NCBI GenBank assembly: GCA_040752815.1
Contig: JBFMGC010000004.1
Location: forward strand, 2,551 to 66,550
Length of the DNA: 64,000 nt
Source of the DNA: Candidatus Zixiibacteriota bacterium
GTDB taxonomy: Bacteria > Zixibacteria > MSB-5A5 > GN15 > FEB-12
Direction of reading: 5' to 3'
The notes under the pieces were generated by a model that worked only from the letters and a program-made list of their open reading frames with translations, was not told where the DNA came from and did no database searches. A program made the translations under genes and the position numbers. Shown here one piece after another: positions 3,369 through 63,872 of the stretch. Numbering within the stretch: the first letter of the stretch is position 1; each line of letters starts with the position of its first letter.

Positions 3369-3371
3369 GTC

Positions 3372-6810: not shown

Positions 6811-6872
6811 AGCTGTCGATAATATCCTGTACTAAATGTTTGACCGGCTTTCTGTTGCCGAGGTTTCGGTGC

Positions 6873-6901: not shown

Positions 6902-6963
6902 GGAAAGCTTTAGTCGGGCGCAAAGTGCCACTCTGTGCCGGTCCCGGCGGAAACTGAGACCAA

Positions 6964-12095: not shown

Positions 12096-12194
12096 AGTTG
12101 TCGCCCTCTCGAAGTTACTTATCGGCAACAAATCCTGCAATTTAAGTCAGAATCTACCGCCGTTGCCGAAAAGTCGCAATAACCTGCAATAGAA

Positions 12195-14336: not shown

Positions 14337-14340
14337 GGCG

Positions 14341-18301: not shown

Positions 18302-18988
18302 TCAGACCTCCCCGCGGCGGCGATCAAACCTGATTTCCGCAATCGCCTTCTGATAATATACCGGTTCGAGCGCGGCCAGATCGGCGTGCTGCCTCGCCTG
18401 CAGTTTATTAAGACCGACTCGAAGCAAATCCATGGCGTCGTAGTTGAACCGACGGGCAGCCTGCTGGAGGTGATCCGACAAAAACGCCTCAGCGCCACAT
18501 CCAACGGTATACACAACGTAATCCCCGATCTTCGCTGACAGTTCCGCCTCGGAGACTATCGTGACAATTGGCTCGGCGTTGTCCTCGTGTCCGTAAGTCC
18601 CGAGATACAATTCATCCTTGCGCGATGGAATCACCACATAGGTTGGTCTTTCTTCGTGACGCAGGCGCGCACCGACTAGTTCAAACATGGTGACTCCGAC
18701 TATCGCAATCTCCCCCGCTACTGCTATGCCCTTGGCTGCGGCAAGACCAATTCTTAACCCGGTAAAGGATCCCGGCCCAAGCGAAACCACAATGCCCTGA
18801 AGTTCTCCGACGGCTACCCCTGACGACTGGAAGAGCTCATCGATCTTCTTCATGATAATCTGTCCGTGGGTGCGGGCCACTGATTCACTCGATTGCACCG
18901 ACCTGTCTCCGTGATGGAGGAGGGCCAGGTTGAGCCGCATCGTGGCCGTATCGACCGCCAGAACGTTTTCGAAACTCATCGCATTCAT
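18302..18988 (-). CDS. tsaB: tRNA t6A37 biosynthesis protein TsaB (YeaZ)
   Basis: VLAVDTAT...VVSLGPGSFTGLRIGLAAAKGIA. Confidence 0.9.
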   Translation of the reverse strand: MNAMSFENVLAVDTATMRLNLALLHHGDRSVQSSESVARTHGQIIMKKIDELFQSSGVAVGELQGIVVSLGPGSFTGLRIGLAAAKGIAVAGEIAIVGVTMFELVGARLRHEERPTYVVIPSRKDELYLGTYGHEDNAEPIVTIVSEAELSAKIGDYVVYTVGCGAEAFLSDHLQQAARRFNYDAMDLLRVGLNKLQARQHADLAALEPVYYQKAIAEIRFDRRRGEV

Positions 18989-19416
18989 GACTGCACCAGC
19001 GAAAAGCTGATTTGCCGCTGCTCCTCGTCAATGATCGAAAACTCGGCCAGATAGTAACGCGACGGCAGACGATAATCGGCCCGTTCGCCCCACTCTACTA
19101 TGACAATCCCGTCGCGGCTGAGAAAGTCATCCCAGCCGATCTCGGTCAACTCCGAGACATCCCCCATCCGGTACAGATCAAGATGATAGATCGGCGGGTC
19201 ACCGGGGTACTCGTTGACGAAAGTGTACGACGGTGAGGTGACGAGACGCTCATCTATGCCCCGCGCCGCAACCAGCGCCCGCACGAAAGTTGTTTTGCCT
19301 GAGCCGAGCTCTCCCCTAAGGATGATGACATCGCCGCTGTCAAACGACGCCGCCAGGCGTCTTCCCAGGGCGACAGTTTCATCCTCGGAATGCGAGATGA
19401 CTTTGAGCACCTTCAC
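18985..19416 (-). CDS. tsaE: tRNA t6A37 biosynthesis ATPase TsaE (YjeE)
   Basis: P-loop GELGSGKTTFVRAL, SPSYTFVNEY, HLDLYR. GTG start. Confidence 0.9.
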   Translation of the reverse strand: MKVLKVISHSEDETVALGRRLAASFDSGDVIILRGELGSGKTTFVRALVAARGIDERLVTSPSYTFVNEYPGDPPIYHLDLYRMGDVSELTEIGWDDFLSRDGIVIVEWGERADYRLPSRYYLAEFSIIDEEQRQISFSLVQS

Positions 19417-19420
19417 GCGG

Positions 19421-20977
19421 CTACCTGGGATTGAGCACCGCTACCGGCACGATCATTTCTTCAAGCGAAATGCCGCCATGCTGGAACGAATTCTGGAAGC
19501 GGCGAACCATTTCGTTATAGTTGTTGGGGTAGACGAAATAGAAATCTTCCCTGGCGATCAGGAACGTGGTGCCGAGAGTGAAAGCCGGCAGGCGCCACTC
19601 CTGCGGCTTCTTGATAACCAACGCCTCTTTTGGATCGGCCTTCAGGTTATCGCCGTATTTGTAACGCAAATTGGTCGATGTAGTCCGCCGCCCGTGGGCC
19701 ATGGTACCGCGACGGCACAGCACCGAACCGTGATCAGAGGTTACGACGACTGTAAAACCTCGGCCGGCAAAAGCTTTAAGCAAACCGAACAGGGGCGAAT
19801 GAGTGAACCAGGTTCGCATCAACATGCGGAAAGCGGCCTCGGAGCCGGCGATTTCCTTCAGGATCACGTTTGATGATCGCCCGTGCACGAGAATATCAAG
19901 GAAATTGAAAACAAAGGTCACCAATCGGCTATCGAAGTAATCCGATGCTCGCCGGAGGATTTCATCCCCCTGGCTGTTATCATTTATCTTGATGAACTTG
20001 AGCGATTTCTCGAGCCGAACGCCATGGCGCGCCAGGTTCTCCATGAGCAGACGGTCCTCGTACTTGTTGAGCGAGCCTTCGTCCTCGCCGTACGTATCGG
20101 GGTAGGCACGGTGGATGTCGTCCGGAAACATGCCGCTGAACAGGGCGTTGCGCGCGAACGGAGTGGCACTCGGGAGTATTGCATAGTAGTAGTGCCGCTG
20201 GATATCGTAGAACTCGGCAACCATCGGCTCGACCAGCATCCACTGATCCAGGCGCATGCAGTCTACTACGATATAGACGACCGGCCGGCCCTGCTTGAGC
20301 GGCGGCACGACATACTTGCCGGTAATGTCCGGCGAGAGCATCGGGCGGCTCTTGCCTCGGAGCCAGTCAGGGTAGGTTCTCAGGATGTACTTGGTGAACT
20401 CGGTATTCCACTCGCGCAGCGTGCCATCGTGGGTCTCCTGCAAACCGGAGTCCGTGCTTTCGTCGAGTTCGAGATTCCACTCCGCCAAAATACGGGCGGC
20501 GTCCTGCCAGTCCTCGGGCGACATGGCGCCGTACAGACGCTGACTGAAGCGATTGATTTCGGTGATATATCGCCGCATGGATGACGAGCCGATAATTCGG
20601 CGGGAATCGAGCAGCCGTTTTATCACCATCAAAATCTGCGACGGCACCACCGGCTTGACCAGGTAGTCATCGATCTTCTGCCCGATCGCCTCGTCCATGA
20701 GCGTTTCTTCTTCCGACTTGGTCACCATGACCACCGGGAGGTGCGGCTTGAGCGCCTTGATTTCCTCGAGCGTGGTCAAGCCATCCTTGCCCGGCATCAT
20801 TTCGTCCAGCAGCACCAAATCGAAGTTCTGGCGCTGGACTTCCGCGATACCGTCGTCCCCGGACATTGCCCCGACTAATTCAAATCCCTTGCCTTCAAGG
20901 AAGACAAAATGCGAGCGCAGCGAATCGATCTCATCATCGATCCAGAGAATTCTCTTCTTGTCGGTAGTGGTTGGCAT
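19421..20977 (-). CDS. response regulator with C-terminal PglZ/alkaline-phosphatase-like domain (PorX-like)
   Basis: REC (ILWIDDEIDS...LVLLDEMMPGKDG...VVMVTKSEEE) followed by a PglZ-like region (VVYIVVDCMRLDQW, ILPSATPFARNALFSGMFP, VVVTSDHGS). 518 aa from the ATG at 20977. The ORF-track start at 21085 overlaps the upstream kinase. Confidence 0.75.
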   Translation of the reverse strand: MPTTTDKKRILWIDDEIDSLRSHFVFLEGKGFELVGAMSGDDGIAEVQRQNFDLVLLDEMMPGKDGLTTLEEIKALKPHLPVVMVTKSEEETLMDEAIGQKIDDYLVKPVVPSQILMVIKRLLDSRRIIGSSSMRRYITEINRFSQRLYGAMSPEDWQDAARILAEWNLELDESTDSGLQETHDGTLREWNTEFTKYILRTYPDWLRGKSRPMLSPDITGKYVVPPLKQGRPVVYIVVDCMRLDQWMLVEPMVAEFYDIQRHYYYAILPSATPFARNALFSGMFPDDIHRAYPDTYGEDEGSLNKYEDRLLMENLARHGVRLEKSLKFIKINDNSQGDEILRRASDYFDSRLVTFVFNFLDILVHGRSSNVILKEIAGSEAAFRMLMRTWFTHSPLFGLLKAFAGRGFTVVVTSDHGSVLCRRGTMAHGRRTTSTNLRYKYGDNLKADPKEALVIKKPQEWRLPAFTLGTTFLIAREDFYFVYPNNYNEMVRRFQNSFQHGGISLEEMIVPVAVLNPR

Positions 20978-20987
20978 CGGGTTCTTC

Positions 20988-22244
20988 TCAGAGTCCGCCG
21001 GATATGGGGAGCGTGACTTGGAAAACGGTTTCGCCGGGCTGAGATCGCACCAGGGTGATCCGGCCCACGTGGTACTCTTCGACAATCCGCTTAACCAGAG
21101 TCAGTCCCATGCCCCAGCCGCGCTTTTTTGTGGTAAAACCGGGACGGAATATCTTTCGGGCCGATCCCGGCGGTATGCCGTGGCCGTTGTCAGCGATTTC
21201 AAGCATAACCTGTGTGCGATCAGGGTTGATACTGGTGCTTATACTCACGCGGCCCGATTTCGGATCGACCGCCTGCAGGCTGTTCTTGACCAGATTCTCC
21301 AGCACCCACGAAAACAGCTCCGGATTTAGCCGCACCGGCGGGATGTTGCCCGGAGTGACAACTATCTGTGTGCCCTGTCCTTCGAACGGCAACCGGGCGC
21401 GATAATATTGCACGCAGTCGGTTACCAGGGAGTTGAGATCACATTCTTTCACTTCCGGTATTGAGCCAATCTGACTGAACCGGGTGGCGACCCGCTGGAG
21501 TCGGATAACATCCATTCGCATATTCTGGACAGTATTGTCGACGAGCTGTACTTGTCCTTCGCGATCCAAGTCCTGCCGGTTTTCGGGGCTGATTACTTCC
21601 AGCCAGCCCATGAGCGACGACAACGGCGTACCCAACTGATGAGCCGTCTCCTTAGCCATGCCGACCCAGATGTACCGTTCTTCGGAGCGCCGGATATTCT
21701 GGAAACCGATTACCGCTACGGTTACAAAAGCCAGCACTATGCCGATAGCGACAAACGGCATCACTCGCAACTGCTTGATTATTTCGGAGTCGCCATAGAG
21801 GAAGTAGTTGATGTTGTTTTCGCCGAAATTGAGCGGGTACTCACCATTGTGGCGGTACATGGCCTCCGCTTCTTCCTTTACGCGCTCAAGCGATCTTCGG
21901 CTGGTGTCGTCGGAAGGGATACCCGGAATATTGCGCCAGGACACCGGTTCTCTGTTACTGTCGAGTACCACCACCGGAAATCTTGCCTTGACGATGATTT
22001 CATCAAAAATGAACGGCAGAGCGTCTTCCGAACTCGGCGACGTCACCGCCCATTGCCATAAATGAACATATTTATCGACCTGGTCACGCGTATCGATCTG
22101 CAGGCGTTCTATAACCTGAAAAGTGTACCAGATGAACGCGCCCGAGATAACCACCACGCCGGTTACCAGAAATATCTTAAAAAAAGTCGATCGCCCGATA
22201 TACAGATCGGCCAGACCCCCACGCGTTTTTTTTATCATGGCCAT
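20988..22244 (-). CDS. membrane sensor histidine kinase (two TM segments flanking a ~135-aa periplasmic loop; PorY-like)
   Basis: TM1 FFKIFLVTGVVVISGAFIWY, TM2 VMPFVAIGIVLAFVTVAVIGF, H-box KETAHQLGTPLSSL, ATPase DNGHGI / GWGMGL. Its start overlaps the serS stop by 1 nt. Confidence 0.88.
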   Translation of the reverse strand: MAMIKKTRGGLADLYIGRSTFFKIFLVTGVVVISGAFIWYTFQVIERLQIDTRDQVDKYVHLWQWAVTSPSSEDALPFIFDEIIVKARFPVVVLDSNREPVSWRNIPGIPSDDTSRRSLERVKEEAEAMYRHNGEYPLNFGENNINYFLYGDSEIIKQLRVMPFVAIGIVLAFVTVAVIGFQNIRRSEERYIWVGMAKETAHQLGTPLSSLMGWLEVISPENRQDLDREGQVQLVDNTVQNMRMDVIRLQRVATRFSQIGSIPEVKECDLNSLVTDCVQYYRARLPFEGQGTQIVVTPGNIPPVRLNPELFSWVLENLVKNSLQAVDPKSGRVSISTSINPDRTQVMLEIADNGHGIPPGSARKIFRPGFTTKKRGWGMGLTLVKRIVEEYHVGRITLVRSQPGETVFQVTLPISGGL

Positions 22245-23509
22245 CAGCCGATTCTATCCGCCCCGCCCATGTACTTTCGGAGCACCTCGGGAATAGTCAC
22301 GCTGCCGTCCGGGTTCTGGTAATTTTCCAATATCGCGGGAATGAGCCGTGCCAGGGCCAGACCGGAGCCGTTGAGCGTGTGGGGGAAGTCAAGTTTCTTG
22401 TCAACATTGCGGTAGCGAAGATTCATGCGTCGGGCCTGGAACGACTCAAAGTTAGAAATCGACGAAATCTCGAGATACCGCTCCACGCCGGCGGCCCAGA
22501 GCTCGAGATCGTAGGTCTTGGCTGAAGCAAATGACAGGTCTCCAGTAGCCAGCATGACCACCCGGTAGTGGATGTTCAGGCTGCGAAGAACCTGTTCACA
22601 CTGTGCCACCAGGGATTCGAGTTCGTCGTACGATCTTTCCGGGTGGACGATCTTGACCAGCTCGACCTTGTCAAACTGGTGCACCCGGATCATCCCCCGG
22701 GTATCTTTACCGGCGGCGCCGGCTTCTCTACGGAAACAGGGGGAATGGGCCACCATGTACACCGGGAGTTCTTCGTCGGTGATGATCCGTTGTTTGTACA
22801 GATTCGTCACTGGTACTTCGGCAGTGGGGATCAGCCAGAGGTCATCAGACTCGATCCGGTACATGTCGTCGGCCAGTTTGGGCAACTGTCCGGTACCGTA
22901 CATGGTGTCGGCGTTTACGATATACGGCGTGGAGACTTCGACAAACCCGGCGGCAGTGTGCAGGTCAAGCATATAGCTGATCAACGCCCGCTGCAGCCGA
23001 GCGCCCATTCCGCGGAGAACATAAAAGCCCGATCCGGCAACAGCCGCGCCTGCGGCCAAATCCAGTATGCCCAGCTTCTCGCCGACTTCCCAGTGCGGCA
23101 GGACCTTGAAAGCCGGCTCCAGTTTCGCGCCCCATTCACGCACCACCTTGTTGGCGGCGTTGTCTTTGCCGACCGGTACCGATTCGTGGGGCAGGTTCGG
23201 CACCAATTGCAGGAGCTTCTGGAGGCCCGCTTCCAGTTCGCGCAGGTTTTCGTCCTGTACTTTGATATCGTCGCCCAGGCGGCGGGTGGCCTCGATAGCT
23301 GCGTCGGCGCTTTGCCCGGCTTTCTTCTTGATTGCGATATCGGCCGAGGCCTGGTTGCGCTCGGCTTTGAGCCGCTCGACCGTACGGATTATCTGGCGTC
23401 GGCGTTCGTCGAGAGCGAGGATTCTGTCGATATCACACTGCTCGTTTTTGTGGGCCGCACCGGTCCGAACCAGGTCGGGAGCCTCGCGGATTAACTTCAT
23501 GTCCAGCAT
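22244..23509 (-). CDS. serS: serine--tRNA ligase
   Basis: 421 aa. N-terminal coiled-coil arm and class-II core (FRREAG, GSGLALARL...). Confidence 0.96.
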   Translation of the reverse strand: MLDMKLIREAPDLVRTGAAHKNEQCDIDRILALDERRRQIIRTVERLKAERNQASADIAIKKKAGQSADAAIEATRRLGDDIKVQDENLRELEAGLQKLLQLVPNLPHESVPVGKDNAANKVVREWGAKLEPAFKVLPHWEVGEKLGILDLAAGAAVAGSGFYVLRGMGARLQRALISYMLDLHTAAGFVEVSTPYIVNADTMYGTGQLPKLADDMYRIESDDLWLIPTAEVPVTNLYKQRIITDEELPVYMVAHSPCFRREAGAAGKDTRGMIRVHQFDKVELVKIVHPERSYDELESLVAQCEQVLRSLNIHYRVVMLATGDLSFASAKTYDLELWAAGVERYLEISSISNFESFQARRMNLRYRNVDKKLDFPHTLNGSGLALARLIPAILENYQNPDGSVTIPEVLRKYMGGADRIG

Positions 23510-40540: not shown

Positions 40541-40873
40541 GAAGTTTTTTGAAGAATCTGCGGCCATTAAGTTGAAATCACACAAGAAGTAATGGGGGAT
40601 GATTTTATTCCGGATCCCAACCGCAACGGACTCAGATAATAACAGTACTCCCCACTTCCGCTACCGACTCGATGATTTCTGGGGTAAGGAACCGCCGAGT
40701 ATGGGGTTACTCCCGGCTAGTTTGCTCGATCCGAATGACCGGGCAAGTTGGTTCGACATAGAACCAGCCCCAGTAACGACCTGCATACCAATGCGTTAGC
40801 GCAATTCAGGAACATAGAGGGTCAACCAAACCGCCGTCGCACCTGGATTGCGCATATCCAATGGGGATTCAGT

Positions 40874-43201
40874 ATGAAACCACTCGGCCGCTTGACATAC
40901 ACAGTAGTCAGCGTTCTTGCTGCCTCACTTAGCGCAATCATGCCTGCTGCTGTGTCGGCCAGCTCCGTGGAATTCGATGTGAACCGGGTGACCGTTTCAC
41001 AGGGGGACGTCACTGTGGTAAGTTATCCGCTGGATGAAACGATTTCAGTTGGCTCGGGATTGATTCTTCCCGCGCATTCCTGTCTTATCCCTCTCGCCAC
41101 GCACGAGGAGTTCGCCTCAATACGAATGGACAGAGACGATTCGGTCGATCTGGGAATCTCACTGGCGAATCATCATCGTCTTGACTACACCACATCATCC
41201 GAGAATGAGTACACCGCCATGGAAATCGCACACAATGCTGCCGACGGTATCGGAACGCGACCGATGGAGGTGCTCGGTACCGTAATGAGTGCCGACGGTC
41301 TCTATGCCGAGGTCCTGTTATTCCCGGTTACGGTGGATGCAAGTGGGAGGCTATGGTTTCATCGGGCGATCGATATCGCTATAGGCGCTCGAATCATAGC
41401 CCCAGACAGTATGGTGTCGCGCCGGACGATTATGCAGGACGTTCGAAGCCAGGGCCTATCGAGCGCTATGTCCGGAGAGTCGGACTATCTGATCGTCACC
41501 TCCTCTGCGCTCGCCGATGCCATGCAGCCGCTAATCGGTTACCGCATTGAAACCGGATACCGGGCGGCGCTCGAGACGATTGAGAACATCCGCTCGCGGT
41601 ATTTCGGGCGGGATGCCGCGGAGCAGCTGCGCAATCGGTTGATAGATTTCCATTCGACCGGCGGACGGTATGTGCTTCTGGCCGGAGACGAAACGGTTCT
41701 GCCGGTGCGCCATGCGTATCATGGGACCGCGTACTCTCCGGTACCGCTCGATCAACTCCAGGTTTGCGATCTCTACTTTGCCGACGTCAACGGCGAATGG
41801 GACGCCGACGGCGACGGTGTCTGGGGCGAGAAGTACGGCGACTCTCCCGACCTGGTGCCGGAGCTTCTGGTGGGCCGGCTGCCCGTCAGCAGTTCTGTTG
41901 ATGCTGCTAATTATATCGCGAAGTTGATTCAATACGAAACCGATCCCGGCGCGGGCGACCGCGAGTACCTCGAGCGGGCGCTGTTTTTCTCGTCGGATCA
42001 GATGCGCGACTTCGGCGACCGCGGTCAACACGGTGAAATCGCGAGCGCCTTTCCGGACCGGTTTGTCATCGATACCGCTTCAGCGGTGGAGTTGGTCACC
42101 GGTGATGACGCCAATCCCACCAACCTCGCCCCAAACGAACTGGCGCCGATCATCCGCAGCGGGATGGGGATAATCAACGTAATCGCGCATGGGCGGAGCG
42201 ATGGCTTTGTGCTCAAATCGTCCGGTTACAACGAATGGCCGAAGACTTACGTGCTTGCCGACAGCGGCGGTTCCGGACATGCAGCGCTTTCGATGTTCTC
42301 GGCTAATGAAAGGCCCACTTTCTATTATTCCCTTGCCTGCAACAACGGTGGTTTCGATCTGGACCAGCCGCCGCTGAATCAGGCGGCTCCGTGCGTTGCC
42401 GAGGAGCTGATTGTCGACCGCGGTGGCGCGGTTGGTGTAGTCGCCTATTCGCGCTGGGGGTGGATTGGGTCAAGCTACCTTCTGCAGGCGGCGTTTTTCG
42501 ATTCGCTCTTTGCCCACCCGGAACGGACCGCAGTCGAAGCGCTGTACGCATCGAAAGCGAACATGTACTATTATCGCGACCTGGTTTACGGCCTGAACTT
42601 CTTCGGCGATCCCGCCCTGAAGATTTATACGCGGCGACCGGAGAAACCCACCATCAGCTTCACCGACGAGCCGGCCGGGCTCGGTGTGGCGGTAGAAACC
42701 GGTTCGCCCGCCGTAGGCTGTCGCCTGGTACTCACCGAAGAGGGCGAAGAGTTGGCGGAATATGTCACTGACGCGGCAGGGCGCACCGTCGTCGATTATC
42801 CGATGCAAAGCACCAGCGTCTATCGGCTGACGGCACTGGTCAGCGGCGCCTGTGTCACCCAGGAGGACTTCATTCCGTCGCTAGTGACCGGAGTCCATGA
42901 TGACCCTGGCGGTTGGTTGCCCTCCCGATTTGCACTTCATCAGAACTATCCAAACCCGTTCAACCCGAGCACAATGATCGAGTTCGAGTTGCCCAGTGCC
43001 GACCCGGTACACCTGACCGTCTACAACGTGCTCGGCCAAGTAGTAAAGACACTCGCCGAGGGCAACTTCGAAACAGGCCGGCATACTGTCGTCTGGGATG
43101 GAACCGAAGCAGATGGGCGGCCGGTCGCCAGCGGTGTCTACTTCTATCGTCTGCAGGCGGGAGCAGCCACCGCGGTCAGGAAGATGATCCTCGTCCGGTG
43201 A
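40874..43201 (+). CDS. gingipain-like cysteine peptidase (family C25) with T9SS C-terminal sorting domain
   Basis: Signal peptide MKPLGRLTYTVVSVLAASLSAIMPAAVSA. C25 hallmarks DYLIVTSSALADAMQPL, YVLLAGDETVLPV, LLVGRLPV, catalytic-type INVIAHGRSDG and YYSLACNNGGF. C-terminus ...YPNPFNPSTMIEFELP...ASGVYFYRLQAG...KMILVR. Confidence 0.85.
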   Translation: MKPLGRLTYTVVSVLAASLSAIMPAAVSASSVEFDVNRVTVSQGDVTVVSYPLDETISVGSGLILPAHSCLIPLATHEEFASIRMDRDDSVDLGISLANHHRLDYTTSSENEYTAMEIAHNAADGIGTRPMEVLGTVMSADGLYAEVLLFPVTVDASGRLWFHRAIDIAIGARIIAPDSMVSRRTIMQDVRSQGLSSAMSGESDYLIVTSSALADAMQPLIGYRIETGYRAALETIENIRSRYFGRDAAEQLRNRLIDFHSTGGRYVLLAGDETVLPVRHAYHGTAYSPVPLDQLQVCDLYFADVNGEWDADGDGVWGEKYGDSPDLVPELLVGRLPVSSSVDAANYIAKLIQYETDPGAGDREYLERALFFSSDQMRDFGDRGQHGEIASAFPDRFVIDTASAVELVTGDDANPTNLAPNELAPIIRSGMGIINVIAHGRSDGFVLKSSGYNEWPKTYVLADSGGSGHAALSMFSANERPTFYYSLACNNGGFDLDQPPLNQAAPCVAEELIVDRGGAVGVVAYSRWGWIGSSYLLQAAFFDSLFAHPERTAVEALYASKANMYYYRDLVYGLNFFGDPALKIYTRRPEKPTISFTDEPAGLGVAVETGSPAVGCRLVLTEEGEELAEYVTDAAGRTVVDYPMQSTSVYRLTALVSGACVTQEDFIPSLVTGVHDDPGGWLPSRFALHQNYPNPFNPSTMIEFELPSADPVHLTVYNVLGQVVKTLAEGNFETGRHTVVWDGTEADGRPVASGVYFYRLQAGAATAVRKMILVR

Positions 43202-44072
43202 GCTGACGTCGCGCAAAGCCGACCGCCAGCGAAATCCCGAGGCCGACCATAAGCAAAAGCCCGCACAGCCATAGAAGCGGGAATTCGTACCACCTGGCGT
43301 ACTTCCTGAGATAACGGTACATCGACGTGTGCGAGATGATCTTCATGCGGTAGGGGCGCAGGCTGGTCGACGCGCCCACATGATGTTCGACTGTCGCCTT
43401 CGGATAATAAAGCAGCCGGTACCCCGCCAGTTTCAGGCGATGGCAATAGTCGACATCGTTAAAGAGAATGGGAAACGACTCGTCCAGGTAACCTACCTCC
43501 TCGACCACCGTCCTCGGCAGCAGCATCACGGCGCCCATCGGCTGGTCGACATACATTTCGCCCTTGTGGTCGAACCAGCCCATACGCCAGTGCGAGAACT
43601 CCCGGTGATGCGGAAAGAGCCGATCCAGCAGGAGAGCCCGGTAGATGACGTGGCGATACGTTGGTAGCGCGCGAGCCGATTTGTGCGGGCGGCCGTCAAA
43701 GTAGACATACCCCGGCCCGATCATGCCGAGCGCGGGTTCGCTCGTCAGCCGTTCAAGAAGGGCCCTGGTGGCTCCCGGGGGGAAGCGAAGATCCTGATTC
43801 AGGATGTACAGGAACGCACCTCTCGCCCGGTTCAGGCCGATATTTGCCGCGCGGGCGAAGCCCAGATTGGCGCTGTTTTCCACAAGCTGTGCGCCCGGAT
43901 AGTTCTCCCTGATGAACTCTACCGAGCCGTCACTAGATCCATTGTCAACGAGAAGTAACTCATACGATGTAAAGGCAAGGTTGTCGGTGAGCGTGCGCAT
44001 CAGGTCGGGCAGAAAAGCACGGCCGTTAAAGACGATGACAATAGCAGAGATTTCTGGTGTCTGGTCGGTCAT
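43176..44072 (-). CDS. family-2 glycosyltransferase
   Basis: ISAIVIVFNGRAFL...LLLVDNGSSDGS...NLGFARAANIG...LNQD (GT-A with DxD-like motif). Its 3' end overlaps the convergent C25 gene by 26 nt. Confidence 0.85.
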   Translation of the reverse strand: MTDQTPEISAIVIVFNGRAFLPDLMRTLTDNLAFTSYELLLVDNGSSDGSVEFIRENYPGAQLVENSANLGFARAANIGLNRARGAFLYILNQDLRFPPGATRALLERLTSEPALGMIGPGYVYFDGRPHKSARALPTYRHVIYRALLLDRLFPHHREFSHWRMGWFDHKGEMYVDQPMGAVMLLPRTVVEEVGYLDESFPILFNDVDYCHRLKLAGYRLLYYPKATVEHHVGASTSLRPYRMKIISHTSMYRYLRKYARWYEFPLLWLCGLLLMVGLGISLAVGFARRQLTGRGSSS

Positions 44073-45310
44073 ATCAGGCGATTCAACAACTGTGCAAATC
44101 GTTCCGCCAGCATGTCAGCGGAAAATTGCATGGCATAGGATGACAGGGGATTATAACAGTAGTTACCGTTAACGACATTTCGCACTTCTGCGACCAACAT
44201 ATCGGCAGCGGTGTCAAACGAGTCGTTATGAAAGCGACATACATTCTCGACAGGCGCAGTCACCCGGGCGACCTCGCTATCGGGTCGCGCATATATAAAC
44301 AGCGGTCGACCGGACGCTATCAACTCGAAGGTTCTCCCCGGCAAGAAACCGGGGCCATCGGCATCAGAGATGCCGAGAAATAAAACGTGAGCCTTGGCCA
44401 GGGTGCGAATAGTCTCCTCGCGGCTGAGGCGTCCGCGCAGGTCGAGCGCGATATCCAGGCCGTATTTGTCGACCAAGCCGCGGAACCAGGCCGGATCGAT
44501 CTGTCCCACCTGAAGCAGGCGAATTCGGCGAGGTGGGTCGGGGAGCTGCGCCCCGGCGAGCGAAAGCAGTTTCAGCAGCGGTTCTACCTCGCGCGTATCG
44601 TGCTGGTGTCCCATCAGTCCAATAGTGAACTGCTCTCCCGACGGCGGCGATATCCAGTGCTCGGCGTGCGAGAGATCAAATCCGTTCGGAATCGTCTCCC
44701 CCGCTCCGAGGTACTCGATTATTGACGGATTCACTGCGGTTAAGGCGGCAGCCCGTTGTTTGATACTGGCCAGTAGCCGCTCGGCTCTGCGGCGGCGACG
44801 AGTATCGCGGAAGACCTCGTCCGCCTTGTAGATCGTCCAGAAATCTCTGAAATCGGCGATCCACGGAACATCAGCGCCTTGCGCAAGCTCCATCCCGATC
44901 AAATGCGACGAAACCGGCGGCGACGTGCTTATGATCGCGTGATACTGATTCGCGCGGCAGAGTTTGTGGCCGAGCCGAACAGCGGGCCGTGCCCAGCCGA
45001 CTTTCGAATCGGGGAAGAACCGCTCGCTGACCGGGCGGGACCGGCTGATTGTCGACGCCCGCACCTGCCGTTTTCCCAGCAGATAAAGCAGCCGCTGGGG
45101 ATCGCATGAACATGAACGACGGATGCGAGACAAATCGAGCCCGTCAAGCAGCTCCGGTTCATAGGCGCGATAGAGCACCGGCTTCACCGTGAGGATATCA
45201 CAGTTCCAACCATGCGCCGGCAGGCACTTGAAGAGGTTCAGTGGCCGCCCCACTCCACCCAGACCGAGCGGCGGAAAATAGTAGCAGACCAGAAGCACGC
45301 GCCGATTCAT
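44069..45310 (-). CDS. GT-B fold glycosyltransferase (GT4-like)
   Basis: N-terminus RVLLVCYYFPPLGLGGVGRPLN. C-terminal LPGRTFELIASGRPLFIYA. ATGA overlaps at both ends. Confidence 0.65.
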   Translation of the reverse strand: MNRRVLLVCYYFPPLGLGGVGRPLNLFKCLPAHGWNCDILTVKPVLYRAYEPELLDGLDLSRIRRSCSCDPQRLLYLLGKRQVRASTISRSRPVSERFFPDSKVGWARPAVRLGHKLCRANQYHAIISTSPPVSSHLIGMELAQGADVPWIADFRDFWTIYKADEVFRDTRRRRRAERLLASIKQRAAALTAVNPSIIEYLGAGETIPNGFDLSHAEHWISPPSGEQFTIGLMGHQHDTREVEPLLKLLSLAGAQLPDPPRRIRLLQVGQIDPAWFRGLVDKYGLDIALDLRGRLSREETIRTLAKAHVLFLGISDADGPGFLPGRTFELIASGRPLFIYARPDSEVARVTAPVENVCRFHNDSFDTAADMLVAEVRNVVNGNYCYNPLSSYAMQFSADMLAERFAQLLNRLI

Positions 45311-46383
45311 GCGGAGCGCCTCGCTATAACTTCGCGGAAGACGTTAATCGTCTCGGCGATGTTGTTCTCGAAGATACCTCTTTGTTCGATCATCTCGGCA
45401 TTTCGGAGACGCATTTTCTCAAAATCCTGGTCCGCTGTCAGAATACGGGAAATCACCGACGACAAACTCTGTACGTCCGAGAGGTCAAAGAGAAAGCCGG
45501 AGTCTTTCGTCACCCATTCGCGCACGCCGGGGATATCGCCGATCACAGGGATCAGTCCCAGCCCCATGGCTTCGAGCAGAGACGCCGGCGATGAATCAGA
45601 AATCGCAGCCGAAAGGTATACGTCGTGCCCCGCGACGAACTCGAGATACTCCGGCCGCGGCAGCTTCTCGTAAAAAGCCACTCCCCGGCTGACCCGATGC
45701 GCTGCCTCATCCTTAAACCTCATCAGGAGTCCCCCGAAGTTAGGAAAAGTCAAGGTCACTTCGCCGGAATTGCACAGATCGGCCAATGCACGAATGATGA
45801 ACATGTTGTTGTACACCTCTTCATGCGGGCGCGGCGCCAGTATCCTCAGCGGGCGCGACAAGCTCATATTAGCACGTCGATATACCAAGTAATTCCGTTC
45901 AATCCCCCAGGCAATCGTTCTCGAATCACGCAGTTTGCCGATCTTGCTCGCCTCTTCCAGAATGAAGTCCGAATCGGCCAACACGCAGTCGGCCGATTCG
46001 AGCGCCAGTTTGGTCTTGTGGCGGTGAAATACCGACTTGTGCGGCCCGATCAAAATGTCGGAGCCCCACAGTTGCAGCACGATCGGCAACGAACTCCGCC
46101 GGTCGGCCAGCGCCGCCAGGAATCCGTAGCCGGAGGCGAAGTGCGGATTGACAATATCCGGCCGAGAACGCCTGAACAATGCGCGTACCTCCGACGCTCC
46201 CAGAGCATAGTGTAGCGCCTTGATCGGCCCGCGCCGACGCAGGGCATGATGCGGCATGGCGCCGGACTCGAGCGATGCCGTCAGCACTTCGCAGCCCTGG
46301 CGCTCCAGTTCGGCGGCATATCGTTCGGTGTGGAAGGCTCGGCTGTCCGCGAGCACCAATACCCGCAATGGCCGCTCGGTCAT
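45307..46383 (-). CDS. family-4 (group 1) glycosyltransferase
   Basis: LRVLVLADSRAFHTERY... and the C-terminal EX7E region SSPASLLEAMGLGLIPVIGDIPGVREWV. ATG at 46383 overlaps the upstream stop (ATGA). Confidence 0.85.
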   Translation of the reverse strand: MTERPLRVLVLADSRAFHTERYAAELERQGCEVLTASLESGAMPHHALRRRGPIKALHYALGASEVRALFRRSRPDIVNPHFASGYGFLAALADRRSSLPIVLQLWGSDILIGPHKSVFHRHKTKLALESADCVLADSDFILEEASKIGKLRDSRTIAWGIERNYLVYRRANMSLSRPLRILAPRPHEEVYNNMFIIRALADLCNSGEVTLTFPNFGGLLMRFKDEAAHRVSRGVAFYEKLPRPEYLEFVAGHDVYLSAAISDSSPASLLEAMGLGLIPVIGDIPGVREWVTKDSGFLFDLSDVQSLSSVISRILTADQDFEKMRLRNAEMIEQRGIFENNIAETINVFREVIARRSA

Positions 46384-47306
46384 AGCAGGCGGCCCAGCCA
46401 TGAGTATCGCCGCCAGCAGGGATACCGATAGACATCTCCACCCCATTTCATCTTATAGGCGGTCAGACTTTCGGCGTCAACGGGTGTCGCACCAAGATTG
46501 AGTATCCTGACTCCGCGCAGGGCGAGCTCGCGTGCGAGCGAATACGTAATCAGCTGGTTCGGCTTCAGTGACGAGAAACGCTTGTCGAAGTACACCTGCC
46601 AGTTGAGCAGCATGTCGCCCTCGACAAAGTAGATATGTGACGCCGCCAGTTCGTCGCCCTGCTCGCACACGAGCCAGCGAATGCGCATGTCGGTCATCGC
46701 GAGACGCCCCAACGCCCGGTAGAACTCGCCCGAGTACCGGGGTACCCGGCCATGTCGTTTTTCGGTACGGGACATGAGGTCGAGGAACGGATCGAGATGT
46801 CGGTTCAGGCTGAAATCCCGCACAGGTACTTCTTCGCGGAGAGCCTTGCGGATTTCAGACTGGAGCTTCTTGTCCGGCGGCAGCCAGTTGCCCGATCCAA
46901 TATCCACTTGGTTGGTCTCACACTCTATCCGCTCATAGCCGGCGACTGTGCCTAACTGACCGTAATAGTCATGGATGTATACTTTGCTAAACGTCTGCGA
47001 TGCAATCGAGGCAGCGAATTGTCCGACAATCGCCGCCTTGTCGGCTGCTCCCTCAAGAAAGTGCGCCCTGGTATAAAGCCCGTCGGGCATCGCCTGCAGC
47101 CTGGCCAGGCGGCCCGTCCCAAACTGCACGCTCGGTAGAACGGCTATCAGCTTCTCACGCTCGAACCAGGCCCAGTACACGGCGAGACCACCCATAGTCT
47201 CCCAAAGTGACACAAACGTCGGCGAACCAAGAAGCGTCCGGCGTTGCAGCCAGACCGCCGCGTGGGACGGCAGCTCTTCGGTCAGAAGTCTGCGCACGTG
47301 TGTCAC
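46380..47306 (-). CDS. FemAB/BioF2-like GNAT-fold acyl- or aminoacyl-transferase
   Basis: The C-terminal region DELAASHIYFVEGDMLLNWQVYFDKRFSSLKPNQLITYSLARELALRGVRILNLG...YKMKWGG fits the FemAB-like acetyltransferase pattern. GTG at 47306 overlaps the upstream stop (GTGA). Confidence 0.6.
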   Translation of the reverse strand: MTHVRRLLTEELPSHAAVWLQRRTLLGSPTFVSLWETMGGLAVYWAWFEREKLIAVLPSVQFGTGRLARLQAMPDGLYTRAHFLEGAADKAAIVGQFAASIASQTFSKVYIHDYYGQLGTVAGYERIECETNQVDIGSGNWLPPDKKLQSEIRKALREEVPVRDFSLNRHLDPFLDLMSRTEKRHGRVPRYSGEFYRALGRLAMTDMRIRWLVCEQGDELAASHIYFVEGDMLLNWQVYFDKRFSSLKPNQLITYSLARELALRGVRILNLGATPVDAESLTAYKMKWGGDVYRYPCWRRYSWLGRLL

Positions 47307-49519
47307 TTGCGCACCAGCAGGAATTTTCCGCGGCCTACGTTGCCTAGTTCGTCGGTGAGCACGAACAAGTATACCCCCGAGGCCACGGGTTCGCCTGAAT
47401 CGTTGCGGCCGTCCCACACCGGCTCGGCCGTCTCCGCCACAAGTTCGCCGGCAACAGTGAAAATCCGAAGGCGCGCGTTGCCCGAGAAATTGAAATTGAG
47501 CAGGTCCTCGGCCGAGGTTATCACATAGGGATTGGGAAAAGCGTAGGCTTCGGCTACTTTATCGGTCGGCGGACCTATTGTTGACAAGACCACCGAGACT
47601 CCGGAAGAAGTTGCCACGTACAAATTCCCTGTAGTGTTGTCAAAGGTCAGATTGTTGACAAAATCCGCCAGCAGACCGCTGTTGCGCTCGGTGTAGACCG
47701 TGATTTCGCCGTTCAGATAATCAACTCGCCCCAGCCCGTTCTTGGCTCCGATCCAAGCGTTGCCGCGGCTGTCGAACTCAAGCGCCGTGATGTCCGGCCC
47801 GAACCCGGCGGGCAGCGTGACCTCGACAAAACTCTCGATGCTGAGATCGAATCGCGATATACCGAGACTGGCGCCCACCCAAAGCTCCCCCTTCGGCGAG
47901 AAACGCACCACCCGCACAACGTCGGAGTTGATGCGATACCGGAAGTTCGGATGCGCCTCGTAATAGTGGTTCAGAGTGTCATCGGCCTTGTTGAACGGGT
48001 CGGCCCCGTAATAATAGTAAAAGACCCCGGCCAGACCGGAACCGACCGCGATGGCGTGATTATACTCATCGACCGAGACCATTTGGCCGCCATTGAGACC
48101 GTCACTGACCCCCAGCGTGGTCCACCCGCTGATGCTGTCCATTTCGTCCAGGGCGGCGATAGCCAGGCGGGTGTCGTCGCGCGGCTCGAAATTGACACCG
48201 AAGAAATAGTTGTCAGTGATCTTGAGGTCAAAGCACACGACATAATTCGATCCAACGCTGCCGGCCTCCTGCAGAGTGGAATTCAACGCCGTGAACTGCG
48301 CTACGGTATCGCCAATCCGTGACATCCCGGCGCCGAACGTCGCCACGTAGAAATTCCCGTTACGGTCGGCCTGCATGGCCAGTCCCCGGCTACGGACGTT
48401 GACCGGCCAGTGCACCCATTGGTCCCCCTGCTGCTCGTACGGCCCGTCGACGCGAAAGAGAAACATCAGGCGGTTATCAGGCGAACGGGTCACGTCGACT
48501 ACATCATTATCAGGCAGACCCGTGTACGGGTATGCGGCATAGTCCGTGCCGACCTGGTAGTAAAGCCCACCGTCAACTCGCCCGAACCACCGCGTACCCT
48601 GAAAGACCGCCCCGCAGCGGGCTCCGCCGGACATGCCTGGCGTGGCGATACTGGACACGGCGCCGCTTTTTACAACACCGACCACAAAGCGCGCGAAGGT
48701 AAATAGCGAGTCATTTCGGACCGTCAACTGGTAAACCGGGCGCCCCACGGAGAACGGCATCTGCGTGAACGAATTCAAGGCATCATTCCACCAAAACAGG
48801 CCGAAATCAGTACCGACATAGACACGACCCTCGAACACAGCGACACAGCGAATTGTATCCCCACCCAGCTCGGGATAATCGGTGTATCGATAACCAATCC
48901 AATTAGCCGGCGATTTCAATGCCAGATGGTTGGTGCGTTTAGCGGTCGCCAGACCAGCCGAGGTAGCCAGATAGATGCTGTCGCCGGAGACTGCGATATC
49001 AAGCACCAGCGGCGCGGGGTTGAGATCGTCGAATAATTGGAAGGCATCTTGTATTTGGCCGCCGCCGATAACTTTGGAAAAGAGGATCAGGCCGACATCA
49101 CACCCGACCCACAGGGCGTCGCCGTCGTCGACCACCCGCACCAGGCGGAACGGATCGCCCTCGTTGTCGACTACGGGATACATCATAGTGGCGGCCCCGT
49201 CCCACCTGACCAGCCGGCCTTTCCCAGCGACCCAGGTGGAGCCACCAGCGTCCTGAATGATGTCGCCGATATCAACTGTGCCGAGATCGCTCAGGTTGGT
49301 GTACTGGCGACCGGGTCGAGCGGCATCGGTTATGGCGAGCAAACCGCCCGAAGTAACCACATAGAGGGTGTCGTCAATCACGGCCATGCGGCGGGCATCG
49401 GAAAACGATGTCAGGCTTCGCCACTCGTACGCGCGCGCAACCGCACTCGAGATCCCGAGTACGACAACTGCCGCGATTGCTAGGTTGCGCGTGATGCTCT
49501 CACCTTTTTCAGAACCCAT
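47303..49519 (-). CDS. secreted beta-propeller repeat protein (two-component-regulator-propeller type repeats) with T9SS C-terminal sorting domain
   Basis: Signal/anchor LAIAAVVVLGISSAVARA. Many repeats of the form D..G..WVG...GL..F/W. C-terminus FPNPYV...RLRIFTVAGELV...ASGVYLFVL...GKFLLVRK. Its start overlaps the lnt 3' end by 40 nt. Confidence 0.8.
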   Translation of the reverse strand: MGSEKGESITRNLAIAAVVVLGISSAVARAYEWRSLTSFSDARRMAVIDDTLYVVTSGGLLAITDAARPGRQYTNLSDLGTVDIGDIIQDAGGSTWVAGKGRLVRWDGAATMMYPVVDNEGDPFRLVRVVDDGDALWVGCDVGLILFSKVIGGGQIQDAFQLFDDLNPAPLVLDIAVSGDSIYLATSAGLATAKRTNHLALKSPANWIGYRYTDYPELGGDTIRCVAVFEGRVYVGTDFGLFWWNDALNSFTQMPFSVGRPVYQLTVRNDSLFTFARFVVGVVKSGAVSSIATPGMSGGARCGAVFQGTRWFGRVDGGLYYQVGTDYAAYPYTGLPDNDVVDVTRSPDNRLMFLFRVDGPYEQQGDQWVHWPVNVRSRGLAMQADRNGNFYVATFGAGMSRIGDTVAQFTALNSTLQEAGSVGSNYVVCFDLKITDNYFFGVNFEPRDDTRLAIAALDEMDSISGWTTLGVSDGLNGGQMVSVDEYNHAIAVGSGLAGVFYYYYGADPFNKADDTLNHYYEAHPNFRYRINSDVVRVVRFSPKGELWVGASLGISRFDLSIESFVEVTLPAGFGPDITALEFDSRGNAWIGAKNGLGRVDYLNGEITVYTERNSGLLADFVNNLTFDNTTGNLYVATSSGVSVVLSTIGPPTDKVAEAYAFPNPYVITSAEDLLNFNFSGNARLRIFTVAGELVAETAEPVWDGRNDSGEPVASGVYLFVLTDELGNVGRGKFLLVRK

Positions 49520-51039
49520 GCCAGGGGCAATATAACGGCCAGAACGAGCGTGATCAAGAACGACAACTTGCCGGCGACGTCACCCGTGCGAGTGAACAAC
49601 GAAAACCCGTCCAGGAGGCTGATCTTCGCCGTCAGTGGGGACACTGCGTCGAGCGGCAGTTGCTCGCGTATGCGGCCGTGGGCATCGACCACGTAACTGA
49701 GACCGCTGTTGGCGGCGCGCACACCCCAGCAGCGGTTCTCTACCGCGCGAGTGACAAACACCCGGGAGTGCATGTGGATGCCGACCGAGTGGCCGAACCA
49801 GGTATCGTTGGTGATCTCCACTATGAAATCGGCGCCGTCAAGAATCAGCTTCCGAACATACTCCGGGAACGTGACCTCGTAGCAGATCAGCGGGCCGAAC
49901 AGTGAGCCGGACGCTTCGAACAACATCGCCGAGTCGCCCGGATAGAAATCCGACCAGAAGGGAACATCGTAAGTCTCGATGAAGGACAGATACCGGGTGA
50001 TGAATTCCTTTCGCAGAAACGGGAGTTGGTCCTGGTACGGCGACTGTTCGGTAAACGGCACCAGCTTGACCTTGTCGTATCGTCCGCCCTGTCTGCCGGT
50101 CGAATCAAAGAAGTAAGCGGAGTTGAAGTGACGCCAGTTCTCGCCCAGGCGCATGGCCCCCAGGGCTCCGACCAGGTGACAGGTTGACATATCAGCAGCG
50201 AGATTCGCAAGTTGGGAGCGACGGGCCTCGTCGTGCGACACGTAGCTGGGGGCGGCGGTTTCCGGCCACACCACGAGATTGACTCTTTCACCCAGCGAGC
50301 GGGCCAGCGAATCATACAGCTTGAAGCTGTATTCCTCGTTATCCTCGGCCCACTTCACATTGACCGGCACCGAGCCCTGCAGGATCGCGACCGGGTACTT
50401 GCCCGGTATCTGAATCGGCGGAGTGACCGCCCAGCCGCAGGCGATCAACAGCACGACAATCCCCAGCGAAACCCAGCCGGCAGTGACCCGGCGGGCGATA
50501 TCTACCTCGCGCCTCAGTATCTGCCACAGCAGGATATTGACCACCAGAATGAGAAACGACAGGCCGTGGACGCCGATCAGAGACACTACCTGCAGAATGT
50601 ACAGGTAGTAGCTCTGGGTGTAACCGAGATCAGACCACGGGAAAGCAAACTCGGAGAGTGTGCGAAAGTATTCTAGCCCGACCCAGAGAAAGGGCAGGGC
50701 GACAATTCCGTAGATCGGTTTGAACCGGTACAGCTTGTTGAAGATGCTGAAGATCGCGGCAAAGTAAAGCGAGACAATTGCCACGGCCGAGAATACTCCC
50801 GGCGGCGATACCTGCGCGACCCAGTAAAGCGAGAAGGCATTAAAACAGAACGCAAACAGATAGGCCGAGCTGAAGGCGGCTCGTCCCGGCATGCGCGATA
50901 TGATCATGATCGGCCGCACGAGCGAGAACCACGCGAGAAAGCCGGGCCAGTCGGGATAAAACGCCAGGGACAGAAGAAACGCCCAGATCGTCAATTCCAG
51001 GCGTCGCTTTCTGACCTCCACGTCCCGGGGGAGGATCAA
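49480..51039 (-). CDS. lnt: apolipoprotein N-acyltransferase
   Basis: N-terminal polytopic membrane domain plus a CN-hydrolase domain with Glu (VVWPETA), Lys (YDKVKLVPF) and Cys (LICYEVTFPE). Confidence 0.92.
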   Translation of the reverse strand: MILPRDVEVRKRRLELTIWAFLLSLAFYPDWPGFLAWFSLVRPIMIISRMPGRAAFSSAYLFAFCFNAFSLYWVAQVSPPGVFSAVAIVSLYFAAIFSIFNKLYRFKPIYGIVALPFLWVGLEYFRTLSEFAFPWSDLGYTQSYYLYILQVVSLIGVHGLSFLILVVNILLWQILRREVDIARRVTAGWVSLGIVVLLIACGWAVTPPIQIPGKYPVAILQGSVPVNVKWAEDNEEYSFKLYDSLARSLGERVNLVVWPETAAPSYVSHDEARRSQLANLAADMSTCHLVGALGAMRLGENWRHFNSAYFFDSTGRQGGRYDKVKLVPFTEQSPYQDQLPFLRKEFITRYLSFIETYDVPFWSDFYPGDSAMLFEASGSLFGPLICYEVTFPEYVRKLILDGADFIVEITNDTWFGHSVGIHMHSRVFVTRAVENRCWGVRAANSGLSYVVDAHGRIREQLPLDAVSPLTAKISLLDGFSLFTRTGDVAGKLSFLITLVLAVILPLAWVLKKVRASRAT

Positions 51040-63098: not shown

Positions 63099-63872
63099 CT
63101 ATCTAACCGACACCCCGTGATCACTCGCCTTGCGGCGGAACTCGCGGATTTCGTCGATATCAAGCGTCACGGTGAGGATGCGCTCCGAGAACTCGTCATC
63201 GTAGCCCACGCACGCGAGCATCCCCCACGGCGCGGCAACCGATGATCGCCCCTGCAATCGTCTCCCGAACAGCACCCCCACACCGCATACTTTAACCACG
63301 TATGCACCGGAAGAGGCGGCGCCGTCGACAAAGTATCGCAAATCCCGCCCTTGCTTAGCGGCGGGAGTGTCATCCGGTCGATAGGGCGATGTGGTCGGGA
63401 CAAATATGACATCAACCTTTGCGCGGCGCATTTCCCCGTACGTTTCAGGATAGAGAACGTCACCGCAAATCATTATCCCGATCCTGACCCCGTCCACATC
63501 GAACACCAGGTTACCTGAACCCGGCTGAATCCCCTTCGCCTGCTCGCCCGGCACCGGGTACCGTTTACGGTAGCTCGCCATCAGGACTCCGTTTCGCATA
63601 ACCGGGCAGCTGTTGAACAGGCGATCCTGTTCACTTTCGACCACGGTTCCACCGATCAGACAGGTCGTCAGCTCTTCTGAAAGCCGTCGCAGATACTCCA
63701 TGTACTCATGATGCTGCAGGGCGGCGCGGTGGAAGTCGCCGATCGATTCGTCGATCAACCAATACTCGGGCAGGCAGACAAAATCGGGCCGCTGTTTGAA
63801 TATGTGGATCATGTCGGGCAGGCTGAGCCGCTTGCCCATTCTCGCCTGCACGGCGACGATTTTGGTCAGCAC
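63099..63872 (-). CDS. carbon-nitrogen hydrolase (nitrilase superfamily)
   Basis: Catalytic triad context FVCLPEYW (Glu), YRKRYP (Lys), IMICGDVLYPE (Cys). GTG start. Substrate unknown. Confidence 0.85.
   Translation of the reverse strand: MLTKIVAVQARMGKRLSLPDMIHIFKQRPDFVCLPEYWLIDESIGDFHRAALQHHEYMEYLRRLSEELTTCLIGGTVVESEQDRLFNSCPVMRNGVLMASYRKRYPVPGEQAKGIQPGSGNLVFDVDGVRIGIMICGDVLYPETYGEMRRAKVDVIFVPTTSPYRPDDTPAAKQGRDLRYFVDGAASSGAYVVKVCGVGVLFGRRLQGRSSVAAPWGMLACVGYDDEFSERILTVTLDIDEIREFRRKASDHGVSVR

Follow-up and report, generated by a model that had tools for sequence, protein, structure and literature searches.

What does a run of six overlapping genes do together when it begins with lnt, the gene for a lipoprotein acyltransferase, and goes on to a beta-propeller protein, a FemAB-like transferase and a set of glycosyltransferases? 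The question is raised by a locus on the minus strand of contig JBFMGC010000004.1 of a Candidatus Zixiibacteriota bacterium, within the 64,000-nucleotide stretch analyzed here (the window). A gene for a C25-family peptidase converges on the run from the other side. [quoted passage not shown] A first-pass annotation of the window had connected the locus to the display of T9SS cargo. That connection was borne out, and it was made specific by a homolog of PorZ in the operon.

The propeller protein is, by its sequence and its predicted structure, a divergent full-length homolog of PorZ – a call that is based on a family match, on end-to-end alignment of its orthologs, and on a fold match to PDB entry 5M11. 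The sole family matched was NCBIfam T9SS_PorZ (NF052228; E = 3e-36, 125 bits), at a score below the equivalog cutoff of 260 bits. Orthologs in other Zixibacteria score 132–147 bits on this model and align to it end to end, and the nearest relatives outside Zixibacteria exceed the cutoff (313–717 bits). The protein has a signal peptide, two propellers of the seven-bladed type, and a C-terminal beta-sandwich that resembles a T9SS C-terminal domain (CTD), arranged as in 5M11. When the AlphaFold2 model (predicted local distance difference test score, pLDDT, 91) was compared to the PDB with Foldseek, the best match was PorZ (5m11; E = 4e-31, template modeling (TM) score 0.67/0.66, 801 aligned columns). 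A sequence profile of the PorZ family had ranked the hybrid two-component system (HTCS) sensor propellers of Bacteroides above PorZ in the PDB. The reading of the propeller protein as an HTCS sensor was set aside by the fold search, in which the HTCS propellers were the next-best family with a TM score of just 0.34, and only PorZ shared the global arrangement. When the propeller, C25 and FemAB-like proteins were compared to the PDB by plain sequence, neither PorZ, PorU nor FemX was matched. As to a type A CTD, the window protein has only sub-threshold matches to CHU_C and FlgD_ig (18 bits), and two of its orthologs, P0157 and P0142, barely pass TIGR04183 (23.7 and 23.6 bits, with a cutoff of 23). 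This protein had been annotated in the first pass as a T9SS-cargo propeller. The link to the T9SS stands, but the protein is not generic cargo – it is a homolog of PorZ, the T9SS component that delivers the lipopolysaccharide (LPS) anchor. The description of the cassette as bracketed by two T9SS cargo proteins was a misreading, as the PorZ-like protein is encoded inside the cassette and the C25 peptidase is possibly a sortase.

The FemAB-like protein encoded next in the operon is predicted from its structural model to be an aminoacyl-tRNA-dependent N-aminoacyl transferase that acts on an amino sugar, as VimA is proposed to do. A profile search, which had been suggested as a check on this protein, gave matches to PF13480 (62 bits, above cutoff) and, from the correct start, to TIGR03019 (pepcterm_femAB, E = 8e-7); FemX was matched at E = 0.012 (15 bits). 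The AlphaFold2 model (pLDDT 94) has a tandem fold of the GCN5-related N-acetyltransferase (GNAT) type. The ten best PDB matches found with Foldseek are all aminoacyl-tRNA-dependent transferases, among them Sbb17/Sba18, FemX, A-PGS/MprF and FemA, with TM scores of 0.67–0.72 and E values of 1e-10 to 3e-13. The top three are Sbb17 and Sba18, whose substrate is an amino sugar, streptothrisamine. The earlier suggestion of an aminoacylated glycan anchor fits both the fold and the TIGR03019 match, which is as reported for VimA. A T. forsythia (Tannerella forsythia) vimA primer given in the supplement of PMC7468200 had no match in metagenome contigs, either exactly or with wobble degeneracy.

Homologs of the FemAB-like protein are also found outside this locus, at L034 6953–10909, L045 7959–10783 and L047 979–4114 in Krumholzibacteriota and Eisenbacteria. 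In Krumholzibacteriota the gene follows one for a B12-binding radical-SAM protein, and in L034 a Polysacc_synt flippase gene is just upstream of the radical-SAM gene. A glycan substrate is favored over peptidoglycan because of these homologs beside a polysaccharide flippase. In the locus from Eisenbacteria, the next gene after the homolog encodes a small protein whose C-terminal domain is of the FlgD-Ig type. Open reading frames (ORFs) measured from stop to stop are longer at these loci (431–613 aa), which may be just the extension of ORFs in high-GC DNA. A second, more distant FemAB-like group (320–335 aa, 100–185 bits on the family profile) is also from Zixibacteria, among them the original RBG-1 genome. 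These proteins could be paralogs or the orthologs of deep lineages.

The peptidase convergent with the operon belongs to family C25 (PF01364, 164 bits) and ends in a type A T9SS sorting domain (TIGR04183, 43 bits with a cutoff of 23; PF18962, 29.3 bits with a cutoff of 27). H481 and C531 are invariant in all 14 sequences compared, and align to the His and Cys motifs of RgpB. From its sequence, the protein is a candidate PorU-like sortase, and this is the weakest link of the mechanism proposed below. A search with the C25 protein listed only Zixibacteria orthologs, with no outgroup among the matches listed. In L029 and L058, an insertion of ca. 2.5 kb separates the C25 gene from the GT-B-like gene. 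Four species have no C25 gene where it is usually found: L032, L035, L040 (between GTB and rsmH) and L006.

The first-pass annotation counted three glycosyltransferases. Two of these are well supported, and the third is just GT-B-like, on weaker evidence. The GT4 protein matches PF13477 (71 bits) as well as PF00534, PF13439 and PF13692. The GT-B-like protein is divergent and GT4-like – PF13579 matches at 29.3 bits, just below its cutoff of 29.7, there is no NCBIfam match, and a profile of the family gave only marginal TarM matches in the PDB (E = 0.03). The GT2 protein matches PF00535 (75 bits) and has, as read from the sequence, a C-terminal hydrophobic segment. Its best matches are generic: a rhamnosyltransferase (55 bits), chondroitin synthase (40 bits) and DPM synthase (31 bits), together with ArnC in the PDB. 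Membership of GT2 in the cluster is optional, with the gene found at 21 of 41 loci.

The arrangement of these genes is conserved across the phylum Zixibacteria, the outcome of a synteny survey that had been put forward as a test. A scan with a FemAB-family profile, using one genome per species, gave 60 loci, nearly all of them from Zixibacteria and some deposited under other organism labels. The window proteins were then mapped onto these loci. The order lnt-porZ-femAB-GT4-GTB is invariant in 40–47 Zixibacteria species (Table 1), and the core is present down to 35% identity. Outside Zixibacteria, the cluster is not kept together. The FemAB-like, propeller and C25 proteins have identical (100%) or nearest matches in metagenome-assembled genomes (MAGs) of Candidatus Zixiibacteriota, and each ORF of the cluster has hundreds of orthologs, as conserved genes rather than chance ORFs would. 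Many MAGs deposited as "uncultured Ignavibacteriales bacterium" (including L007, L009, L012, L022 and L023) carry the full Zixibacteria-type locus, and these deposit names look like placeholders or errors.

The ORF listing placed all six minus-strand ORFs where the first-pass annotation had put them, with lnt at the head of the overlapping run, separated by 212 nt from apgM upstream. The junctions described there are also present. Four of them are 4-nt GTGA/ATGA overlaps of a start codon with a TGA stop (GTG at 47306; ATG at 46383, 45310 and 44072), the PorZ-homolog ATG at 49519 is 40 nt inside lnt, and the C25 stop codon (43199–43201) is 26 nt within the 3' end of the convergent GT2 gene. Start codons are inferred throughout. 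The ATG at 49519 is the only start of the PorZ homolog that retains the signal peptide, with the next candidate start at codon 45, past it. In the NCBI record the FemAB-like gene starts 9 nt downstream (305 aa), and a 5-nt gap replaces the 4-nt overlap. Independent gene calls in four relatives have the same overlaps, or gaps of near zero or a few bases.

Table 1. Genes of the locus, its conserved flanks and PorX: position in the window and occurrence among evaluable loci of the synteny scan
Feature	Position	Strand	Remarks	Evaluable loci
lnt	49480..51039	-	519 aa, TTG start; first gene of overlapping run	40/40, upstream of PorZ homolog
PorZ homolog (propeller gene)	47303..49519	-	738 aa, ATG start	45/45, directly upstream of FemAB-like gene
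FemAB-like transferase	46380..47306	-	308 aa from GTG at 47306; longest ORF form 46380-47417	
GT4 glycosyltransferase	45307..46383	-	358 aa from ATG at 46383; longest ORF form 45307-46446	47/47
GT-B-like protein	44069..45310	-	413 aa	44/44
GT2 glycosyltransferase	43176..44072	-	298 aa	21/41
C25 peptidase	40748..43201	+	likely start ATG 40874; convergent with operon	28/32, convergent
purM			flank	27/29
rsmH			flank	29/31
PorX, T9SS response regulator	19421..21085	-	26 kb from operon, outside it	

The GC content of the cluster is 0.56–0.60 in 2-kb windows, and that of the remaining window is 0.55–0.61. An origin of the cluster as a horizontal-transfer island was rejected, as its GC content falls within this range. 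Rfam and tRNA scans of the window gave no matches. A sigma-70-like match (TTGATC-17 nt-TATATT) is found at 49557–49529 on the minus strand, inside the 3' end of lnt and 10 nt upstream of the porZ start. On this sequence match, porZ may have a separate promoter within lnt; such matches are near chance level in the region, with 10 found and 5.6 expected.

The first gene of the run encodes, by sequence, a canonical apolipoprotein N-acyltransferase. It scores 265 bits on TIGR00546 (cutoff 133) and has the LNT_N and CN_hydrolase domains of Pfam, and residues 22–488 align to Lnt structures that have been solved for P. aeruginosa and E. coli (5n6m and 5n6h). The triad E260, K323 and C386 is invariant in 41 of 41 Zixibacteria orthologs. 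Nothing was found in support of a functional role for lnt in the cassette, at whose head the first-pass annotation had placed it, and Lnt is probably merely co-transcribed, with no chemical part in the anchor pathway. Its position cannot be read as a functional link, because the conserved order and the overlaps reach functionally unrelated genes – the fixed order runs on, to either side, into the housekeeping genes purM, pgm and mraZ-rsmH-ftsI. In L064, a deep-branching relative in Zixibacteria, pgm overlaps lnt by 26 nt (8427–8452) and lnt overlaps porZ by 4 nt. Since pgm is a glycolysis gene, overlap does not imply shared function here. A second carbon-nitrogen hydrolase in the window, at 63099–63872 on the minus strand, is nitrilase/amidase-like, lacks LNT_N, and is not a second lnt. 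No paper describing a functional link between Lnt and the T9SS was found in a literature search.

The slot between purM and lnt, which is filled by a phosphoglycerate mutase gene, varies among the Zixibacteria. In the window and its closest relatives it holds an archaeal-type apgM (PF10143; 51252–52475 on the minus strand of the window), and in most others a bacterial gpmI (iPGM_N; L002 4696–6225, L003 4695–6233 and L064 6893–8452 were compared). One gene thus seems to have taken the place of another to which it is not orthologous. In the closest long relative (L001/L004, a 989-kb contig; 6231–7839 and 18702–20855), lnt, apgM and ftsI are each split into at least two ORFs, most likely by indel errors of the assembly and not as real pseudogenes.

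The known chemistry of T9SS attachment suggests how the proteins of the locus could act together. In Porphyromonas gingivalis and T. forsythia, the connection of cargo to LPS is made by a linking sugar with serine or glycine on it; when vimA is exchanged between these species, the amino acid changes over as well, and VimA is proposed to be the enzyme that adds it (PMC7468200). VimA matches an N-acetyltransferase domain and TIGR03019, and VimA-like genes recur beside other sorting systems (PMC7468200). The P. gingivalis linker is a pentasaccharide, with WbaP, GtfC, GtfF and VimF as its proposed builders; it needs VimA as well as VimF, GtfC and GtfF, and vimF adjoins vimA and vimE (PMC13086638). 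The vim genes of P. gingivalis are described as an operon of their own, vimA-vimE-vimF, and no link to porZ or porU is described (PMC7468200, PMC13086638).

From the gene identities and folds given above, we infer the following mechanism. On the cytoplasmic face, a lipid carrier or an LPS precursor would receive a short linker saccharide, built by GT4, the GT-B-like protein, and GT2 where present. The FemAB-like enzyme would N-aminoacylate an amino sugar of this linker, or of a nucleotide-sugar precursor, with an aminoacyl-tRNA as donor. This would leave a free alpha-amine, as VimA does with the linking sugar that is seryl or glycyl in P. gingivalis and T. forsythia. Export would bring the glycolipid to the outer membrane and its outer leaflet, where the PorZ homolog, itself exported by the T9SS, would bind it and present it to the C25 transpeptidase. 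The C25 peptidase would remove the C-terminal sorting domain of the cargo and join the new C-terminus to the amine, so that the cargo is anchored at the surface.

A number of observations weigh against this reading. The C25 protein scores 76 bits on the PorU model NF033707 (41 bits without the CTD), far from the cutoff of 420, and at ca. 770 aa it is much shorter than the 1,095 positions of that model or the 1,156 residues of the solved P. gingivalis PorU. A profile of its catalytic domain gave 49.7 bits to RgpB and 20.1 bits to P. gingivalis PorU (6za2). The C25 gene is absent from its usual position in 4 of 32 loci. The TIGR03019 match of the FemAB-like protein is weak (28 bits with a cutoff of 260), and its likeness to VimA is by way of the family matches described in PMC7468200, not the VimA sequence. 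The locus lacks a CE4 deacetylase (VimE), Wbp genes, an initiating phosphoglycosyl transferase and a flippase, and no CE4 deacetylase was present elsewhere in the window or among the genes listed for four relatives. True PorZ genes in two other lineages do not have C25, FemAB-like, glycosyltransferase or lnt neighbors. The cluster also sits within a block fixed throughout the phylum that includes unrelated housekeeping genes (purM, pgm and the division and cell wall (dcw) genes mraZ-rsmH-ftsI). Adjacency is weaker evidence than usual, because these flanks are as fixed as the core.

The size of the C25 protein, its score far below the PorU cutoff and its closeness to RgpB mean that it may be a surface protease and not a sortase. 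It would then be a gingipain-like enzyme and one of the T9SS cargo proteins, with the true CTD peptidase encoded elsewhere, and the anchor-glycan and PorZ part of the proposal would still hold. We regard this as possible, though doubtful. The architecture (an N-terminal region, the C25 domain, an Ig-like domain and the CTD) is like that of RgpB and unlike the long PorU, as expected for such a protease, and its occasional absence agrees with it. Nearly all Zixibacteria nevertheless have an ortholog, mostly in the convergent position, and the identity among these orthologs (38–57%) reflects a divergence like that of the PorZ homolog and the FemAB-like gene. The orthologs align to positions 345–743 of the 1095 in the PorU model, with scores of up to 111 bits. 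NCBIfam gave the C25 protein only PorU-type and CTD-related families, so the comparison to gingipains draws on just two P. gingivalis sequences. Rather unlikely, given the evidence, is the broader alternative that the FemAB-like protein and the glycosyltransferases modify a general envelope glycan (O-antigen, exopolysaccharide or other) unrelated to the T9SS, and are neighbors of porZ only by a frozen gene order. That order takes in purM, pgm, lnt and the dcw cluster, with pgm and lnt overlapping in L064; the glycosyltransferase families are generic; and the homologs of the FemAB-like gene in Krumholzibacteriota and Eisenbacteria are in polysaccharide contexts without PorZ. Against a general glycan, there is an overlap of the FemAB-like gene with the PorZ-homolog stop codon in the window and in relatives, the glycan genes are flanked by two T9SS-specific genes, and the cluster has no initiating transferase, flippase or polymerase, all of which would be expected in a stand-alone polysaccharide locus. 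VimA-type enzymes, moreover, are the known source of the nucleophile for the T9SS sortase (PMC7468200).

Two further explanations concern single members of the cluster. Lnt might be functional in the pathway, acylating the amine of the anchor glycan or a T9SS component, or pairing with GT2 in the manner of Ppm1. This is very unlikely, and acylation of part of the anchor by the co-transcribed Lnt in particular is given hardly any weight. Lnt does precede and overlap the PorZ homolog at every evaluable locus, its chemistry is the N-acylation of a free alpha-amine such as the pathway is predicted to yield, and GT2 combines its hydrophobic segment with the weak match to DPM synthase. The enzyme, however, has a housekeeping look, with a score above the equivalog cutoff, full-length alignment to solved structures and an intact triad; no second lnt was seen in a scope short of whole genomes; and no paper was found that ties Lnt to the T9SS. 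The analogy to Ppm1 in the first-pass annotation did not hold, and a Ppm1-type system of Lnt and GT2 was rejected, as GT2 is the least conserved member of the cluster, is missing in half of the lineages, is four genes away from lnt, and has a non-specific similarity to GT-A enzymes. The FemAB-like protein might instead be a FemX-type peptidoglycan-branching enzyme belonging to the neighboring dcw cluster, a reading that appears extremely unlikely. The locus abuts mraZ-rsmH-ftsL-ftsI-murE, the best fold matches include FemX and FemA, and a related protein appears in one source under the label "lipid II:glycine glycyltransferase". Yet the score on the FemX model is below that on TIGR03019, the substrate of the best fold matches is an amino sugar rather than lipid II, homologs elsewhere adjoin a polysaccharide flippase, and the gene is set apart from the dcw cluster by the glycosyltransferases and the convergent C25 gene.

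The cargo-attachment reading places the locus among several known systems, each of which it resembles in part. With the attachment complex known from P. gingivalis and T. forsythia (PorU, PorZ, PorV and PorQ) it shares the PorZ fold of two propellers and a CTD-like domain, a C25 peptidase with a type A CTD, and PorX. It differs in that the PorZ homolog of Zixibacteria is encoded in an overlapping operon facing the C25 gene, an arrangement not seen at the non-Zixibacteria PorZ loci examined, and in that the C25 protein is shorter and nearer in sequence to a gingipain than to P. gingivalis PorU. As in the Wbp/Vim pathway, a FemAB/GNAT-type gene weakly matching TIGR03019 is directly followed by a GT4 gene (VimF is known here by its description, not its CAZy family), and there are additional glycosyltransferases, as a short linker needs, but VimE, the Wbp enzymes and an initiating transferase are missing from the Zixibacteria locus. 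The FemABX transferases (FemX of Weissella viridescens, Sbb17/Sba18 and MprF) have the same tandem-GNAT fold at 12–15% identity. The Zixibacteria protein lacks the coiled-coil insertion of FemA, and its context is secretion and glycan synthesis, not the synthesis of peptidoglycan, antibiotics or phospholipids. PEP-CTERM/exosortase loci also link a FemAB-like gene to a sorting transpeptidase system and to glycosyltransferases, a recurrence noted in PMC7468200. Here the machinery is that of the T9SS (C25 and PorZ) and not an exosortase, and the TIGR03019 match is far below cutoff. As with actinobacterial Ppm1, genes of the Lnt family and GT2 share what is probably one transcription unit; in Zixibacteria the two are neither fused nor adjacent, Lnt is canonical, and the optional GT2 has no specific similarity to Ppm synthases.

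One more T9SS gene is found in the window, well apart from the operon (Table 1). It encodes PorX, which scores 617.5 bits on NCBIfam T9SS_RR_PorX (NF052313; cutoff 300), covers profile positions 2–513 of 513, and has the Response_reg and PglZ domains of Pfam. With this genuine PorX, the organism carries T9SS regulation. The porX gene shares an overlap with a histidine kinase gene (20988–22244, minus strand) at the 3' end of the latter, which possibly encodes a PorY-type partner, and serS, for seryl-tRNA synthetase, is directly upstream of the kinase gene (22244–23509, minus strand). In P. gingivalis, porX and porY are presumably unlinked orphan genes. No further genes for the T9SS, Wbp or LPS turned up in the other ORFs of the window, and neither PorV nor PorQ was seen in it. 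Two other groups of genes appear unrelated to the cluster: two histidine kinases with GAF domains next to a response regulator of the sigma-54 activator type (10665–15717, minus strand), and a polyamine block with Orn/Arg decarboxylase, spermidine synthase and GATase (1200–4058, plus strand).

A literature search found no paper on the T9SS in Zixibacteria. What is new in this locus is the presence of a PorZ homolog, a VimA-like enzyme, glycosyltransferases and a C25 peptidase together in one locus outside Bacteroidota that is kept throughout an uncultured phylum. It gives independent genomic support to the model of anchoring through an aminoacyl sugar, would extend T9SS attachment chemistry beyond Bacteroidota, and offers a compact gene set for the heterologous reconstitution of such anchoring. 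The short C25 enzyme is nominated as a possible minimal sortase. The locus also carries a caution, that an overlapping gene order kept throughout a phylum can take in functionally unrelated genes such as lnt and pgm. Tentatively, the whole may be a minimal, self-contained T9SS anchoring module in ca. 10 kb, made up of a compact C25 sortase, the PorZ homolog, and an aminoacyl-tRNA-dependent enzyme with two or three glycosyltransferases for the synthesis of a dedicated, aminoacylated glycolipid anchor, and the compact sortase could be of the form ancestral to PorU and the gingipains. If this were so, one operon could be enough to reconstitute the attachment reaction as a whole, and the aminoacyl-sugar nucleophile would be an ancient and general feature of the T9SS, not a peculiarity of oral Bacteroidota.

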